Positions 6,879-43,790 of a stretch of DNA of 64,000 nt are shown here, piece after piece. The stretch is from Carcharhinus longimanus. Its lineage: Eukaryota. Location of the stretch: contig JASCQW010000132.1 in NCBI GenBank assembly GCA_030264375.1, forward strand, positions 48,540,234 to 48,604,233, given 5' to 3'. Within the stretch, counting starts at the first letter, position 1; each line of letters begins with the position of its first letter. The translations under genes and the position numbers were made by a program. The notes below the pieces were generated by a model. That model ran no database searches. It saw only the letters and a program-made list of their open reading frames with translations, and was not told the DNA's origin.

Positions 6879-7121
6879 AAGTATAATCTTCAGCTACAGT
6901 TGGACAATATGACGTGCAAAAGGCTGGAGGGAAATGTAAAACAGGGTCAAAGGCTAAGGCTGAAAGGTTAAAGGCCAGAGAGGCAAGGGAAAATCAAGAG
7001 TTAAAGGTTACAGGTAAATGGGAAAGTCGTATAGGGTTATAAGGGTAAAAGCAACATACTGCAGATGCTGTTAAAATTAAAGTTTGTTTATTAATCACAA
7101 GTAAGGCTTACTTGAAGCAAA

Positions 7122-7309
7122 AACAGAAAATGCTGGAAAATCTCACCAGGTCTGACAACATCTGTGGGGAGGGAATAGAGCCAATGTTTCGAGTCTAGAT
7201 GATCCTTCACCAGAGCTCTGACAAAGGGTCATCTAGACTTGAAATATTGGCTTTATTCTCTCTCCACAGATGCTGTCAAACCTTCTGAGATTTTCCAGCA
7301 TTTACTGTT
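7122..7309. mobile_element. Penelope-like palindromic repeat with two head-to-head degenerate hammerhead motifs
   Basis: Arms AACAGAAAATGCTGGAAAATCTCA... and ...TGAGATTTTCCAGCATTTACTGTT are reverse complements centred on CAGAGCTCTG (7211-7220). Confidence 0.75.
7177..7219 (-). ncRNA. Degenerate minimal type-I hammerhead ribozyme motif
   Basis: Minus strand reads AGAGCU-CUGGUGA-A-GGAUC-AUCUA-GACUC-GAAA-CAU-U-GGCUCU. Stem I (6 bp) and stem II can be drawn. The core has an A>G change, so it is probably inactive. Confidence 0.55.
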
Positions 7310-9871
7310 GTTGTAGGGTTATAGGGTAGTGAGGTGAAGCAAATGCAGGATTGCAGAAGGTAAAATGGTGGGGGCAGGGGTATAGAGGGGGAGGAATTAC
7401 AGTTAGTGAGAGGCAGTCGCTTCAAGGATGGGCGGAGGGAGCAGAGCATAAGGAGAGCCAGAGACCCCAAAGTGAGGATGTGACAAGAGTATCATTGGAT
7501 GCTGGTAAACGATTAAGGCTCAGCCGTCAAGGTGGATGCTGTTGACTTGGGAACTGATTCGCAGGGAAAGTTTGCAGAGTGAAACACAGAGAAGGTCAGA
7601 GTTGGAAGCAGTGATTCCAGTCGTGTAAACCCAGGTGAAGTTGAAATGGGAGAATGGGAATTTAAAAGGTGAAGGGAAAATTGGGAAAAAGGTAAGAATG
7701 GGGAAGGAGATACAGGAGAAGAGTAGGAGGAAGGTGAAGCAAGCAGATTTTCAACTTGCCTTTTCAGCAAAATACCACAGTGGAGCCTGGGGGATGCCTT
7801 TGTTTGCTGACAGGTTTGGAGTAGTCGATGGTAGGGAAGGTGGTGGGCTGAAATTTCCTAACTTTCAGGGGTTGGGAGGGGTTCCATAAAGTGGGAAAGG
7901 AATGTAAGGGTGGAGTACCGCTCATTTTCCTGCATGCATGCCATCTTGCCAGTGGAGGGGAAGTCGGTATACAGTTTTCATGCACAGAGGCCCATTGAGC
8001 CACTTGAGTGGCCAATTAAAGGTCCCTTTTCTATCCCTGATGGCAAATTCTGTTGGACTGGGGTGGGGGAGTTCCTCCTATTACACACTATTTTGCCCAC
8101 AGATGGAAAGGGTGCTCCAGTAGCAATGGATGCTTCCCTGTCAATGTCATATGGTTTTTAACCTCCCCCCGCCCCTCACCCCTCCACTTCCCTGTCCACT
8201 TCCCGTTTCTGTGCCTGATGGCAGGAATCCTGCAGTGAGAACAAAATTCCAGCTGGTGGGTCTGGTGTAATGCAAGAAACCTGAAAGTCTGGGAAGCAAT
8301 GGAGCAGAGATCACTGTCATACCAGGAGCCAGCAAGTGCTGAGTGGCGTTGAGGTTACGATCACAGCGCAAGACAATAGTAGTGGTGAGGAGGGGTGGGT
8401 TGGGGGGAATAATATGGGCCAGGAACACCACAAGGTCTCAAGTGAGTGGAACCAAGATCATAGTCATACTAAGAGCACAGAGAGCAAGAGTGGAAGGTCA
8501 AAATCTTAGCCATCTTGTTAGTGAGATGGACGCAACTGTAAACAGAATCCAAGTAGCTAGGACAGTTTGGCACACAATAACGACCAGGGTAGGACAGTGC
8601 TGCCTGCATCACTGTTTTTTTTGAGCTAATGGTTTATTTTTAACTGGTGCAACCTGAAAATAATCCTGGGGGAATTAGAGTAAATTCCACTCTAGCAGCT
8701 GCTGAGCAGGGGCACTGGCTGGTGAGGGTGTGGAGCAGGGAGCGTGAGATGAGCAGTAAGTACCAAAATCTAGAAACTTAAAACAAACATTAATATCATA
8801 AAAAGTAACAAATAAATACAGCAGTGCGGAGTTTCCACTAATTGTGCTTTTATTTTTCATTGCTATAACAACCAGAAAACATTGAAAAATTTTAAATGCA
8901 AATTTTGTTCAGTGCAATTTGCGTTTCCACGATCTTTAGTGTTAGTTTAAAAAATATTATGCTGGAACTCGGCCCCACCTCCAAAACTGATCATGCCCAT
9001 CCCGCACCCCACCCCAGGATAGATTTAGCACCATTGGGAGTTTCTGCTAATTGTGCCTGTTTGCAACCTTTCGGGGAGGATCCAGAAATGAAGCTGCATC
9101 TTTTGAGTTCAAGGAAACTAATAGATATATTTTGGAACATTGTAAATTACTTTTATAAATGATTTAAAATTATTACTTTTTTGTCAACTCATTTTTAGCT
9201 GCATCATTCAAGCATTATCAAGTTATGACTCTTAAATATATAAAGGAATATTTATGAAAGACTTTTTTTTAAATTAAAACACTGTCCGACTGCATTGTTT
9301 CTTAGCAGTTTGCAAATGTGATGCAAAAATGTTTGAACGGAAACTTGGAGAAGGGAGCAATTTTTCAAAAATGGGTGCAATTTTGTGTTAAATTTGCGCT
9401 ACAGTAGCTGATTGTGCCTCAGTGTGACAAAAACATGATCATCAAGCAGATTGGTTTGGAGTGATTGACTGCTTCCCATTCCTTTTCTCGTTCATTGGTA
9501 TGTTTTGTTGACTGTTCATGTTTGTTTCTTTTGTTGTCATTTGTGCATAGTAGTTCCTCTGTAAATGTAAAGTACATTTACCCATTCTTCTCTTGTTTGA
9601 TACATATATCCCCTGCCCCTTCAGTTATGATATGCTGCTATTTTATGAATGTAAAGTATGAACCAATCAGTTGCAGATATTTCCACATACGCAAATATGG
9701 CATTGAAGTGTGAGCCAGGTATTGAATTTGCAATGGACAAATTGCATGTTAAATACTTTATTCTATGTACAGTTCTAACTGTGATAAATTGCAGGTAAGT
9801 AACCAATGCAAAGATGCCCCACACAGGTCAAAGACAAAATGTAGTGCATCCATATGACACTAACATTTTGT

Positions 9872-10248
9872 TAGCGAGAAGAAGGTTAAGAGGTGACCAA
9901 ATAGAGGCATTCAAGATGACCAGAGGATTAGATAGGGTGGACAGTGAGAGCCTTTTTCCTCAGGTGGTGATGGCTAGCACAAGGGGACACAGCTTTAAAT
10001 TGAGGGGTGAAAGACATAGGACAGATGTCAGAGGTAGGTTTTATACTCAGAGAGTAGTAAGGGCGTGGAATACCCTGCCTGCAACGGTCGTGGACTCGCC
10101 AGCATTAAGGACATTTAAACGGTCATTGGATAAACATATGGATAATATTGGAATGTGTAGGTTAGATGGACTTTAGATTGGTTTTCACAGGTTGGCGCAA
10201 CATCAAGGGCTGAAGGGCCTGTACTGTGCTGTAATGTTCTATGTTCTA
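9872..10248 (+). mobile_element. CR1 (HER1-like) LINE 3' end
   Basis: ORF2 C-terminus RRRLRGDQIEAFK...TRGHSFKL...FYTQRVVRAWNTLP...FKRSLDKHM, with tail GTTCTATGTTCTA. Confidence 0.9.
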
Positions 10249-14050: not shown

Positions 14051-14745
14051 AGTGAAAAGTATTGTTTCTTGCACGCTATACAGACAAAACATACCGTTCG
14101 TAGAAAAAGAAACGAGAGAGTGCAGAATGTGGTGTTACAATTATAACTAAGGTGTAGAAAAAGATCAACTCAATGTAAGGTAAATCCATTCAAAAGTCTG
14201 ACGGCAGCAGGGAAGAAGCTGCTCTTAAGTCGGTTGGTACGTGACCTCAGACTTTTGTATTTTTTTCCTGACGGAAGAAAGTGGAAGAGAGTATGTCCGG
14301 GTGCGTGGGGTCCGTAATTATGCTGGCTGCTTTGTCAAGGCAGCGGGAAGCATTGACAGAATTAATGGATGGGAAGGCTGGTTTGTGCGATGGGTTGGGC
14401 TACATTCACGACCTTTTGTAGTTCCTTGTAGTCGTGGGCAGAGCAGGAGCCATACCAAGCTGTGATACAACCAGAAAGAATACTTTCTGTGGTGCATCTG
14501 TAAAGGTTGGTGAGAATAGTAGCTGAAATGCCAAATTTACTCAGTATACTGAGAAAGTAGAGGTGTTGGTGGGCTTTCTTAACTATGGTGTCAGCATGAG
14601 GGGACCAGGACAGGTTGTTGGTGACCTGGACACCTATAAACTTGAAACTCTCAATCCTTTCTAATTCACCTCCATTGATGTGGACAGGGCATGTTCTCCT
14701 CTATGCTTCCTGAAGTTGATGATAGTCTCCTTCGTTTTGTTGAGT
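14051..14745 (-). mobile_element. Rex1/Babar-type LINE 3' fragment
   Basis: Minus strand encodes a decayed ...FKFIGV...SFWLYHSLVW...PSGK.YKSLRSRTNRLKSSFFPAAVRLLN-type C-terminus. Confidence 0.75.
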
Positions 14746-25228: not shown

Positions 25229-25822
25229 TCCCATTTTTGCTGCCAGGGCAGGATGTGAATCATATAGACAGGAGACCCAAATTCAGTCAAATCATTTGTA
25301 ATTAATGCTGAATTCAACCAATCTCATTTGCAAGGGCATTTGCCCACAGTTTGCAATTTATAAATTTATGGAGGAGGCATAGATGTTCATGCAGGGCAAA
25401 TAAGGTCTGTTTATGTGTTATGATCTGAAGTTATTTAAATCCTCAGCACGTTAATGATGAAAGAAAGAGGCTGCAGCTGTCAGAGTTAAAAGGTAGACAC
25501 CCACTACTGGAGTGTACTGATTTATAGGCCATCTGATATAGTTAAAATAATTCAGTAGCCATCTGTTCCTGCAGTTTCAATAGATTTCACTGTTGACATT
25601 TCCCAAGAGCTGCTATTGTATCTGAGCCCATTATGAATATTTGGCTGAATTTCAAAAGCACCAAGACATTTAATTCAACAGAGTTTGAGTTCACTTTCTG
25701 ATTGACAGTTGAAGAGACTATTAAAGAATTAGTGTCTTTGATGTGGTTAGTGAATAGAGGTTTGTTTTTACATTGACCACTTGAAAAGATTTAACATTTT
25801 AATGTGTTTCATGATTAAAATA

Positions 25823-25975
25823 AAACAGTAAATACTGGACAAACTCAGCAGGCCTGGCAGCATCTGTGCAGGAGAAACAACAGTTAACGTTTTGAGTCAA
25901 ATATGATTCTTCTTTGGGACAGTAACTCTGCTTCTCTTTCCACAAACGCTGCCAGACCTGCTGAGTTTTTCCAGC
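25823..25975. mobile_element. Penelope-like palindromic repeat, centrally deleted relative of 7122-7309
   Basis: AAACTCAGCAGGCCTGGCAGC and GCTGCCAGACCTGCTGAGTTT are inverted arms. Confidence 0.7.
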
Positions 25976-29106: not shown

Positions 29107-31148
29107 GTAATCATTCAATAAAAATATCCATTTTGTGTTTTTCCTGCAGCTGGTCCTGAAATTCGGCTTATCATGTTTTTCCTTCAAGAAAACTTTTTCT
29201 TCCTGGTATCGTGTTATGAAATTAATTCTTTGGCATTGTATGTTATTCAAATTATTCAATTTTATAATCATGAACGAATTGAAATTTTCAAAATAATTAT
29301 TTATGCCGATGCTTTATCCAGAATGGAACACTGCTTGATTTGAGACAATAAAAAGAAAATGCTCAAAAGATTGAAGAATCACACTGGTTTTTTGTATCAG
29401 GAAATTATGGATATATTTTCTGATACCTTGCTGCCAGTGGTTTGCTTGACCAGAGAACAAATTAGTGCGTTGGGTCTGGAGGTCATCATGTCTCGTATGC
29501 AGTGCTTTCAATTTTTTTGGTTGTTGATTTCAATGGCTGATTAACCAGAAATGGTGTCAATCAGATGCAGTCAGCTCCATGCCTGAATCTCCAATACGTG
29601 CTCTCACTGAGAAGGGTTCAGCACAGGACAGAGAGCCTTGTAACATTTACTCTTTCGTGATCTTTGGGGAACTGATTTAAAATGCAGCTCTTTTACTTCT
29701 AAACCAAACAGTCATAGAACAAAGATTTATTTTATCTGCTAGCTGTGAGATCCTTAAGCAAAATTAATTTGAATAGTCTCAGCCCAGTTGATAGTTAAGA
29801 GTGGATCTTTGCCACATGATCACCCACAATTTGGTGCAGTTGACACTTAGGTTTTACTTCACAATGTGGCAATGAATTAAGATAAGTAGGGTAAGGCTGT
29901 CTTAAAATAGTAGAAATTGGAATTTCATAAAAACAGATTAAACATTGTGTACTAATATTTGCACAGTGTAATTTCAAGCCCTGAAGGGAACAAATTCATT
30001 CAGAGGGAAAATGGGACAAAGTCACAGTGCTGCGATTGGGAATCTGAGGTTGGGTGTAAGACTTGGGTGGGGCAAAGTAAAATGACTTTTAATCTGCATC
30101 TGGTCACAGCACTTGAGTTCTAGGTGCTTAAGAGGGACTGTGCTAGACTTTGCAGCATTAACATCCACTACCAGCACAGAATTTTATTTAATTTGACATG
30201 CATTTTATAATATTTTTGAATCATTTGAAAAATTCACTCTCCAACACGTGCAGTGAAAGCAGTTCTAAATTGTTAACATTAGTCAAATTGTTATTTATGC
30301 TTAAGCAACCATCCATAGGTTTTGGGGTAAAAAATTAGTGATATATAAAGATTGCCAAATTACGTTGATTGAAAGATATTTGCCAAAAACCTCCATCTTC
30401 ACCTGCGGCTGGGATTCTCCAGTGCCACTGAAAGTGAATAGAGTTTTGGCTGAGCGCCAAATTTTCTGTTCTTATTGGCAGAGATGGCAAGGTGAATGGA
30501 ATCAGAGAATCTCACCATTATCAGGAAGATGGAACCCATGTAGGTTTTTGAGGAAGGAGTTAAAAGTTGTTAAAATTATTTTTTACGATTGCGTTAAATG
30601 GCAGTATAAATAGTTTACTGAGTTTATTCAGTGAACAGTTGAGTCATCACAGAGCAGTGGTCTCAAATTTAGTCCCTTATCTGTGCTGTAGTGATCAGTG
30701 CAGGAGCCTCAAACTATTTACAATCCATATTGACTTGGAGAAAGAGACAGATTATCTTGGATTTGCAAAAGGCATTTGATAAGAATCCACGTAAAAAAGT
30801 TACTGCACAACATCAAAGTCCATGGTGTTGGTGGTGATATATTAGCATGGATGGAAGATTGGCTAATCAACAGACAACAGAAATTTGAAATAATTGGATA
30901 ATTTTCCAGTTAACAATCTATAAGTAGTGGAGTGCTGCAGGGATCAGTGTTGGAATCTCAAAGATTTACGATCTATATTAATGATCAAATGAAAAGATAA
31001 CCAAATTTGCTGATGAGACAAAGATGGCTGGGAGAATGAGCTGAGAGGAGGATATAAATATTTTACGAAGAGGTATATGTATAAGTTAATTAGGTAGGCA
31101 AGACATCGGCAGATAGAGTGAAATGTTGGAAACTATGAAGCCATCCAT

Positions 31149-32366
31149 GCAGGGTGAGGTAGTCAATTGGATACAAAATTGGCTTGATGATGGAAGACAG
31201 AGGATGGTTGCAGAGGGTTGTTTTTCAAACTGGAGGCCTGTGACCAGCGGGATGCATCAGGGATCGATGCTGGGTCCACTGTTATTTGTCATTGATATTA
31301 ACGATTTGGATGATAATTTAGGAGGCATAGTTAGTAAGTTCGCAGATGACATCAAGATTTGTGGCATAGTGCATAGTGAAGAAGATTATCTAGGATCACA
31401 ATGGAATCTTGAATAATTAGGCCAGTGGGCTGATGAATGGCAGATGGAGTTTAATTTAGATGAATGCGAGGTGATGCATTTTGGTAGATTGAACCAGGGC
31501 AGGACTTACTCAGTTAATTGTAGGGCACTGGGGAGAGTTATAGAACAAAGAGATCGAGGGTAACGGGTTCATAGTTCCTTGAAAGTCGAGTCACAGGTGG
31601 ACAGGATGGTGAAGAAAGCATTTGGCATGCTTGTTTCATTGGTCAGAACATTGATACAGGACTTGGGACACCTTGCTGAAGTTGTACAAGACTTTGGTAA
31701 GGCCACATTTGGAGTACTGTGTACAACTCTGGTCACCCTATTATAGAAAGGATATTATTAAACTAGAAAGAGCGCAGAAAAGATTTACTAGGATGCTACT
31801 GGGACTTGATGNNNNNNNNNNNNNNNNNNNNNNNNNNNNNNNNNNNNNNNNNNNNNNNNNNNNNNNNNNNNNNNNNNNNNNNNNNNNNNNNNNNNNNNNN
31901 NNNNNNNNNNNCTAGGATGCTACTGGGACTTGGTTTGAGTTGTAAAAAGAGGCTGGATAGACTTTTTCGTCTGGAGTGTAGGAGGTTTAGGGGTGATCTT
32001 ACAGAGGTCTATAAAATAATGCGGGGCATAGATCAGCTAGATAGTCAATATCTGTTCCCAAAGGTAGGGGTGTCTAAAACTAGATGGCATAGCTTTAAGG
32101 AGAGAGGGGAGAGTTACAGAAGTGTCCAGAGGGGCAACTTTTTCACATAGAGGGTCATGAGTGTCTGGAACAAGCTGCCAAAGATAATCGGAGAGGTGAG
32201 TACAGTTTTATTTTTTAAAAAGCATTTAGTCAGTTACATGGGTAAGATTGTATAGAGGGATTTGACCAAATGTGGGCAATTGGGACGAGATTAATAGTAA
32301 AAACTGGACAGCATGGACAAGTTGGGCCGAAGGGCCTGTTTCCATGTTTTAAACCTCTATGACTCT
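31149..32366 (+). mobile_element. Younger CR1 LINE 3' part
   Basis: WIQNWL...QGSMLGPLLF..INDLD..SKFADD, LYKTLVRPHLEYCVQLWSPY and RRFRGDLTEVYKIM; tail CTCTATGACTCT. Confidence 0.92.
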
Positions 32367-41769: not shown

Positions 41770-43790
41770 CCTGGTGAAGTTGCAGTACAGGATGGCTTAC
41801 ATGTCAAACAGCAAAAGAAACATGCAATAGAGCTGAACAATCCCACCAGCATCAAATCAGATCAAAGCTCCATAGTCCTGCCGCATCTAGTTATGAGTAA
41901 TTGTGGGCGATTAAACAACTAAATGAAGGAGGAGGCTCCACAAATATCCCCATCATCAACACATCAGTGCAAGAGAGAAGGCTGAAACATTTGCAACAAT
42001 CTTAGCTAGAAGTGCAGAGTGGATGATTCATCCAGGGCTCTTCCAAGGTCCCCAGCATTACCAATGCCAGTCTTCAATTAACGCAGTTCATTTCATGTGA
42101 TACCACAAAAAGGCTGAAGACTGGATACTGCAAAAGCTATGAGCTCTGACAACATTTCAGAAATAGTATTGAACTCGCCGTCCCCATAGTCAAGTTGTTC
42201 TAGTACATTCACAACACTTGCTTCTACCCGACAACATGGGAAAATTGTGTAGGTATGTCCTGTTTACAAAAAGCAGGATGAATCTAACCAAGCCAATTAC
42301 CACCCCAGCAGTATGCTCTTGATCATCAGCAATGTGATGGAAGGTGCTTTTACCAGTGCTATTAAGCAGCACTTACTCAGCAATAATCTGCTCATTGATG
42401 TTCAGTTTACATTCTTCCAGAGTCACACTGCTACTGACCTCATTACAGCTTTGATCCAAACATGCACAGATGAGCTGAACTCAAGAGGTGAATGAGAGTG
42501 ACTGCCTTTGACAATAAGCAAAACTAGAGTTGGTGGGAATCAGGGAGAAATCAGCTGGTTGGAGTCGTACCTCGCACAAAGGAAGTTGGTTGGGTTGTTG
42601 GAGGTCAATCATTTCAGTCTCAGGACATCTCAGCAGGAGTTCTCGGGGTAGCATCTTCAGCCCAATCATCTTCAGCTGCTTCATCAATCACCTTGCCTTC
42701 ACCATAAGGTCAGAAGTGGGGATGTTCTCTGATGATTGCATAATGTTCAGCACCATTTGCAACAACTCAGACACTGAAGCAATCCATGTCCAAATGCAAA
42801 AAGGCTTGGACTGGCTTTGAGCTGATGAGTGGTATGTAACATTCACACCACACAATTGCCGGGTAATGACCAAAGATATGCAGGTTAGTGAAGTGATCAT
42901 GCTAAATTGCCCCTTAGTGTGCAAAAATGCATAAATTGGGTGGATTAGCATGGGGTTACAGGGATACGGCAGGGGAACGTGCCTGAGTAAGATGGAGAGT
43001 CAGTGCAGACTCGATGGACCAAATGGCCTTCTTCTGAACTGTAGGGTTTCTGTGATTCTACAGTCTTCAAAAAGAGAGAATCTATCCACCTTTGTTTGAT
43101 ATTCAGTGGCATTACCATTGTTGAATTTCCCACTATCAACATCCAGGGGTTACCATTGTCCAGAAAGTGAACTGGACTAACCATTTGAATGCTGTGGCTA
43201 CCAGAGCAGGTCAGAGGCTGGGAACTCTACAGAGAATAACTCATCTGACTCTCCAAAGCCTGCCCACCAACTGCAAGGTGCAAGTAAGAGTGTGATAGAA
43301 CGCTTTCCACATTCCTGAACGAGTGCAGCTCAAGCAACACTCAAGAAGTTGAACAACATCCAGGACAAAGCTGTCCACTTGATTGGTCCCCCACCCACTT
43401 TACACCCTGCCCACCAACACGCAGTAGCAGCAGTGTGTACCATTTACAGGATGCCCTGCAGCAACTCACTGAGGCTCCTTCAACAGCACCTTCCAAACCT
43501 GCACCTCTACCAACTAGAAGGACAAGGGCAGCAGATGTACGGAAATATAACCACGTGCAAGTTCTCCACCAAGCCACTCACCGGCCTGACTTGGAACTAT
43601 AATCACAGTTTCTTCACTGTCACTGGGTCAAAATCCTAGAACTGCCTAACTGCGCTGGGGATGACCCTACACCATGTAGACTGCAGTAGTTCAAGAAGGT
43701 GACTCACCACCACCTTCTCAAGGGCACTTAAAAATGGACGATAATTTGTGGGCTAGCCAGCAATACCTGCATCCTGTGAAGAAATCAAAC
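41770..43790 (+). mobile_element. Decayed LINE ORF2 and 3' UTR (CR1/L2 group), containing a 5'-truncated V-SINE at ~42870-43059
   Basis: GSIFSPIIFSCFINHL...VGMFSDDC RT motifs, NIQDKAVHLIG C-terminus, and tail TCACCACCACCTTCTCAAGGGCA...GCTAGCCAGC. Confidence 0.8.

Follow-up and report, generated by a model that had tools for sequence, protein, structure and literature searches.

What is the palindrome of about 190 bp that lies in an intron of SATB1 in Carcharhinus longimanus, and does it place a working ribozyme in the transcripts of this gene? The palindrome is located in the window, the 64,000-nucleotide stretch of DNA that we analyzed, and was described in an earlier note, made from the sequence alone, as two head-to-head hammerhead motifs sharing a centre. 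Our analysis confirmed an inverted repeat of two 98-nt arms (7118-7215 and 7216-7313) that are 85% complementary and have no spacer between them, and both motifs are present in the sequence as they had been written. We believe that the palindrome is most probably one old insertion, flanked by a target-site duplication (TSD) and composed of two head-to-head pLTR ends of a Penelope-like element (PLE), which was likely twin-primed at insertion and is likely inert.

The whole insertion (7046-7313) is larger than the palindrome itself, so the extent given previously stands for the palindrome but had missed the TSD, a tail and a 41-bp insert. The left TSD (7032-7045, 14 nt, plus strand) is matched by the right (7314-7326, 13 nt, plus strand), the two being exact over a 10-mer (7032-7041 and 7314-7323) and alike at 13/14 nt overall with one deletion. 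Between them, the long arm (7046-7217, minus strand) is a PLE pLTR end that runs from an AGCT, the putative start (+1), to the tail end (+135), and it aligns up to position 137 of the reference arm. The short arm (7214-7313, plus strand) is a pLTR end that runs from +1 to about +100 and has no tail. The self-complementary AGCT (7214-7217) is common to both arms, forming positions +1 to +4 of each.

The tail of about 35 bp (7046-7117, minus strand, arm positions ~101-135) is present on one side only, as recognized by comparison of copies and from PLE tails in the relevant passages of three papers (PMC8557442, PMC3846280, PMC11167929). It is split by the 41-bp insert (7071-7111), which is the end of another common repeat that arrived later and replaced about 5 nt of the tail: the insert had 11 other matches among the fetched loci, each running on into one common repeat, and in copies that do not have it 7070 is joined to 7113 with 5 nt between. 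There is no obvious duplication around the insert, and it is also carried by a related organism, F. Contigs of organism F enter the element from both flanks, which are about 3% different (17/507 and 15/500 bases), and the insertion is therefore older than that split; an empty site was sought in organism F and was not found, as F carries the insertion. In the aligned palindromes, arms differ from the column majority by about 6% outside CpG sites.

Both arms are copies of the pLTR end, with its hammerhead, of a PLE that has a reverse transcriptase (RT) and a GIY-YIG endonuclease (EN). The query for this search was the upstream DNA of one copy; the 40 best of 4,321 candidate places were scored and 30 were fetched (L079-L108). 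In these 30 loci the arm, the same as the long arm of the window copy, follows a GIY-YIG-like C-terminus and a pyrimidine-rich pLTR with a TATA motif. The C-terminus scores 0.95 to clusters with PF01541 in up to 42% of their members, and an RT frame containing a YIDD motif lies farther upstream and had 20 protein matches at E<=1e-10, 14 of them with PF00078; two of the three named matches were from ray and shark. A Cys-rich linker between RT and EN was seen by eye in the translations, and in one decayed example among four long loci (L110) a body of about 3.3 kb is bounded on each side by the pLTR and arm. Pfam scans of decayed PLE fragments (2 and 16 fragments) detected neither RT nor GIY-YIG, and a PDB search with the RT piece gave 0 hits. 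The link to RT plus GIY-YIG open reading frames expected in the earlier note was nonetheless borne out, as was its assignment of the motifs to the minimal hammerheads of PLEs.

Perfect palindromes account for a few per cent of the arms and lie within a continuum of PLE insertion products. A 17-nt pattern for the arm start had 3,639 genomic matches versus 23 for exact two-armed centres, and correction for decay via column frequencies put the totals roughly at 10,000 arms and 160 perfect palindromes. On one contig, two of 29 consecutive insertions were perfect palindromes, and of 30 loci selected on the core, none had an exact centre and 10 had an inverted partner at the threshold of our script. 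The other forms are single arms, lopsided or partly inverted arms, and arms joined to RT/GIY-YIG bodies. One locus (L144, ~780-1520) holds a nested insertion in which two inverted arms of an older subfamily are followed by an RT fragment and then by an arm starting at +1; in this subfamily the triplet is GUC and AGCU comes after it, which makes both strands of stem I the same tetramer.

Palindromes, single arms and long copies alike have arms whose outer ends fall into two clusters, at ~100 and ~135. Two sets of palindromes were compared, 40 chosen by similarity to the window copy and 15 fetched of the 23 picked on the centre alone, with one copy in both. Under a strict cut-off, one tail was present in 31/40 of the similarity-selected palindromes, two in 1/40 and none in 8/40, the window copy being scored among these eight because its tail is split by the insert; exactly one tail was present in all 15 of the centre-selected palindromes. 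TSDs, variable in length (7-17 bp), were identified in 21/40 of the similarity-selected palindromes versus 2/120 shuffled flank pairs, but they were clear in just 6/15 of the centre-selected set at a slightly lower cut-off, and TSDs sought beside single arms were mostly absent; both points count against our reading. A one-tailed inverted pLTR is the signature of PLEs in the pertinent parts of the published accounts (PMC8557442, PMC3846280). At arm position 15 (7203 in the window) we also noted a change of G to A in 16/80 arms, which is not at a CpG site and never occurs in both arms of one copy.

The inner ends of the arms also appear to be fixed, as the 4-nt AGCT overlap is at the centre of 27/40 palindromes. 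Among 25 core-selected copies without native upstream DNA (5/30 having been set aside as native), the match to the native pLTR was 17, 21, 22 and 23 of 25 at positions +1 to +4, and 9, 9 and 3 of 25 at -1 to -3. A third set of copies was blunter (+1, 12/21; +2, 14/21; -1, 11/21), which counts against a fixed inner end. Inverted arms end at +1 before the PLE body in L041, L104 and L144; against this, they run past +1 in L084 and L194, and that of L084 continues into native pLTR. In L194, L196 and L197 there are larger inversions whose arms retain native upstream pLTR, so not every inverted partner ends at +1. A TATAAA motif (one mismatch allowed) starts exactly 30 nt before the A of AGCT in 22/30 native copies, a spacing between TATA box and start that is the textbook value. 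Based on this motif, we infer that AGCT is likely the transcription start of the element.

Alternatively, the fixed inner end could be a 3' splice site (AG|CT), with a spliced RNA or splicing intermediate setting the point at which the arms stop. This reading, which concerns one step only and not the identity of the element, is consistent with the pyrimidine tract and AG, with a CTRAY motif in 20/30 native copies, and with frequencies of A and G before CT that resemble those of exon ends (the consensus being taken from general knowledge). There is also a precedent, since in D. virilis Penelope the 5' end of helix I marks where the intron stops, and the promoter is TATA-less, according to the sections on this element in PMC4209133 and PMC2377424; a TATA/Inr-like motif is described for the pLTR of a rotifer element (Pen2a_Av) in the corresponding part of PMC3846280. 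We consider a splice site unlikely because an upstream exon common to the copies was absent among the 30 examined, the AG is retained where the partner is a PLE body (L041, L104, and L144), and TATAAA stays at -30 even in subfamilies whose spacer sequence differs.

With AGCT as a transcription start, we infer the following route to the palindrome. The RNA of the element would start at the A of AGCT, 30 nt below the TATA box, and its first ~40 nt would thus be the hammerhead. Nicks made 10-15 bp apart by the PLE protein, one in each strand, would let reverse transcription begin at two internal sites, at ~+135 for one strand and ~+100 for the other. Both cDNAs would run off at +1, their 3' ends being the self-complementary AGCT, which would anneal and be filled in to give a palindrome with no spacer. 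If instead one of the cDNAs stopped early or copied the far pLTR, the outcome would be one of the commoner forms, either a lopsided inversion or an RT/GIY-YIG body with an arm attached. We put forward this 'double strong-stop', in which two opposite-strand cDNAs run off the 5' end of capped PLE RNA and anneal via AGCT, as a serious but tentative possibility that we stop short of calling probable. The same tetramer is also the 5' strand of stem I of the hammerhead.

A lizard PLE of another clade, Poseidon of Anolis (PAc), has been studied in an in vitro system in which both strands are cut and then extended by its protein with uncleaved RNA as template, and two 3' ends that bound the tail, as here, are read as two RT start sites (PMC11167929); the passages of that paper considered here leave inverted junctions unexplained. 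In the corresponding part of PMC8557442, the origin of the inverted ends and one-sided tail of PLEs is called undefined. If twin priming is correct, it explains both of these features, and if the two cDNAs do run off at +1, the promoter of these fish PLEs is mapped, with TATA at -30 and the ribozyme at +1. From these minimal inserts we predict that each strand has its own priming site, two in all, and that the junction falls at the RNA 5' end. The palindrome is likely to be useful mainly as a clue to how PLEs probably copy from both sides of a cut.

A different route from the same PLE origin would be for one cDNA to fold back and prime its own second arm (self-priming), and for endonuclease resolution to leave the tail. 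Self-priming has been proposed for other PLEs, as set out in a section of PMC3846280, and a minority centre with a 6-nt overlap (4/40) fits snap-back at a small native hairpin. In addition, a subfamily marker site is concordant between the arms in 35/40 copies (Fisher p 2e-5), which favors fold-back; this concordance is compatible with a single source or a single wave of activity and does not discriminate between fold-back and twin priming. Similarly, the two arms within a copy resemble each other a little more than expected by chance (0.110 versus 0.116, p 0.01), which would also be given by fold-back or conversion. Against fold-back, a loop is absent from the most frequent type of centre, both outer ends also occur among single arms, and in eight copies (L048, L058, L137, L148, L150, L171, L177, and L178) it is the tailed arm that is missing its inner part and the arm without a tail that is complete, so that neither arm could have templated the other. 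Either arm may be the incomplete one in lopsided copies, which means that each arm can hold sequence that is missing from the other. Lopsided copies could be palindromes that were deleted after insertion, and such later deletion could mimic the copies that argue against fold-back. We regard fold-back as decidedly unlikely.

The family motif has the conserved core, stems I and II and a palindromic stem III, and is a credible minimal hammerhead. The intact ancestor inferred in the earlier note does occur in the genome, with 153 exact matches versus 0 for a control pattern, and a generic hammerhead core had 1,634 matches versus 143 for its control. A different, fully paired stem II was present in three of the five shortest-class matches among 100 listed, and older subfamilies change both sides of stem I; these examples are hand-picked and anecdotal. 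In an Rfam scan, the hammerhead was absent among 14 matches at E<=10, all to hairpin families and below threshold. A stem I of 6 bp, as had been described, is present in the window copy, but natively the stem is about 4 bp because the bases 5' of AGCT in the native pLTR are pyrimidines; the two outer pairs are supplied by the opposite arm and do not exist in the native element, whether AGCT is a start or a splice site.

Both motifs of the window copy are damaged, which agrees with the previous view that this copy is dead. The minimal type I motif on the minus strand (7179-7217) has core A6 changed to G, a mismatch in stem II and a non-palindromic stem III, while that on the plus strand (7214-7252), which is in the sense orientation of SATB1, has core G8 changed to A and two decayed CpG sites, so neither core is intact. 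CpG decay, to which most differences had been attributed, explains 6/9 changes inside the motifs but just 4/15 arm-to-arm mismatches. Across 40 palindromes, the core is intact in 10/80 arms and in 0/40 pairs.

The RNA of the palindrome is predicted to fold into one hairpin of about 98 bp (-139.9 kcal/mol, z -18; 0/200 shuffles as stable), as had been anticipated for SATB1 pre-mRNA. Enforcing the hammerhead fold costs 47 kcal/mol on the plus strand and 37 kcal/mol on the minus strand, and within the hairpin the predicted probabilities of the hammerhead stems are <1e-14. The antisense arm is therefore predicted to sequester the sense hammerhead in either transcript, and since the motifs are on opposite strands a dimer in cis is impossible. 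Self-cleavage of SATB1 pre-mRNA is very unlikely given the mutated cores, the modeled cost of the hammerhead fold and the lack of a cis dimer. We also considered whether an RNA start at +1 favors the hammerhead fold; the effect was strong in one copy and inconsistent over 10 copies, and this idea was rejected. Published PLE hammerhead motifs are weak or protein-assisted according to the passages on their activity in PMC4209133 and PMC11167929.

These results bear on the earlier proposal that the palindrome represents a non-autonomous family, here taken to retropose as a unit, whose copies put self-cleaving RNA on both intron strands. In its favor, a common centre is shared by 40 or more similar palindromes, and one master copy would also give the one-sided asymmetry. 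However, palindromes are only a few per cent of the arms, with 23 exact centres against the thousands of arm starts, fixed differences between long and short arms are absent in 31 pairs, the centres vary (13/40 differ), and the rule of one tail also holds for inversions that contain a PLE body. The claim of self-cleavage from both strands also lacks support, as the cores are mutated, no pair has both cores intact and folding of the hammerhead is predicted to be blocked within the hairpin. We consider a palindromic family highly improbable. A MITE or microRNA-type hairpin is scarcely credible: apart from the inverted-repeat shape and the Rfam matches to miRNA hairpins, all of which are far below gathering scores, the locus has unequal ends rather than equal terminal inverted repeats, TSDs of variable length (7-17 bp) rather than a fixed short TSD, and arms that belong to an RT element.

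The architecture of the insertion is already known. As in insertions of EN+ PLEs, judging from the portions of three accounts that deal with them (PMC8557442, Fig. 2; Pen2a_Av, PMC3846280; D. virilis Penelope, PMC2377424), there is an inverted, 5'-truncated pLTR in head-to-head arrangement, a tail of 30-40 bp at one end only, a TSD of about 8-15 bp and an overlap at the inverted junction; the TATA/Inr-like motif of the Pen2a_Av pLTR is a further likeness, and the Cys-rich linker in our translations may correspond to the C-x-x-C-type linker described before the endonuclease of Neptune/Nematis in part of this literature. The window copy differs in being the smallest possible case, with ORF and spacer absent between the arms and a junction preferred at one tetramer.

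Similarly, the minimal PLE hammerheads in the relevant sections of PMC4209133 share with our motif the core (CUGANGA / GAAA / UH), one extra base before stem II, the absence of helix III with a palindromic 15.2-16.2, and a short stem I. Paired motifs on opposite strands are also noted there; those of the window copy differ in that they overlap by 4 nt within a full hairpin and both cores are mutated, and in having a stem II of 5 bp and a GUU triplet in the window subfamily. Non-LTR retrozymes are likewise ORF-less, PLE-derived hammerhead sequences, but they are described in the part considered as direct tandem repeats with a complete hammerhead per unit (10.64898/2026.07.22.740005). The identity of our insertion as a retrozyme was rejected because of its inverted arrangement and damaged cores, which make unit-length RNA impossible. 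The sections of PMC6155905 considered here contained nothing on fish, and we found no published account of this fish PLE family or of a junction at AGCT and the start site, although repeat databases may already list the family.

The host gene is SATB1-like and on the plus strand, which confirmed that the palindrome is in a SATB1 intron. A search for the ULD domain, together with a scan of 75 of the 392 ORFs that were at least 55 aa long, located the gene: ULD exons are about 17-18 kb upstream of the window on the plus strand, and CUT exons are at about 10.5-10.95 kb and 28.9 kb of the window, the first of these having SATB1 as its best match (E 1e-22 versus 2e-12 for SATB2). A genome-wide CUT search did not recover the split SATB1 exons. 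We suggest no function in SATB1 for the insert, which is at most one more intronic double-stranded RNA hairpin. In every arm, at 7257-7266 and its counterpart, there is a pyrimidine tract, CAG and an ATG downstream of the hammerhead, which together resemble a 3' splice site ahead of a short frame; judging by these letters, the short arm, which is sense with SATB1, could have a role as a cryptic acceptor.

A second, older pair of inverted ends from a related PLE subfamily is located in the same gene at 25822-25975, with its centre mostly missing. RT fragments (PF00078) with an ALKBH8_N match are also present on the minus strand (31117-31413, 42518-42817, and 14365-14700), and these pieces in the SATB1 introns are likely ordinary LINE remnants.
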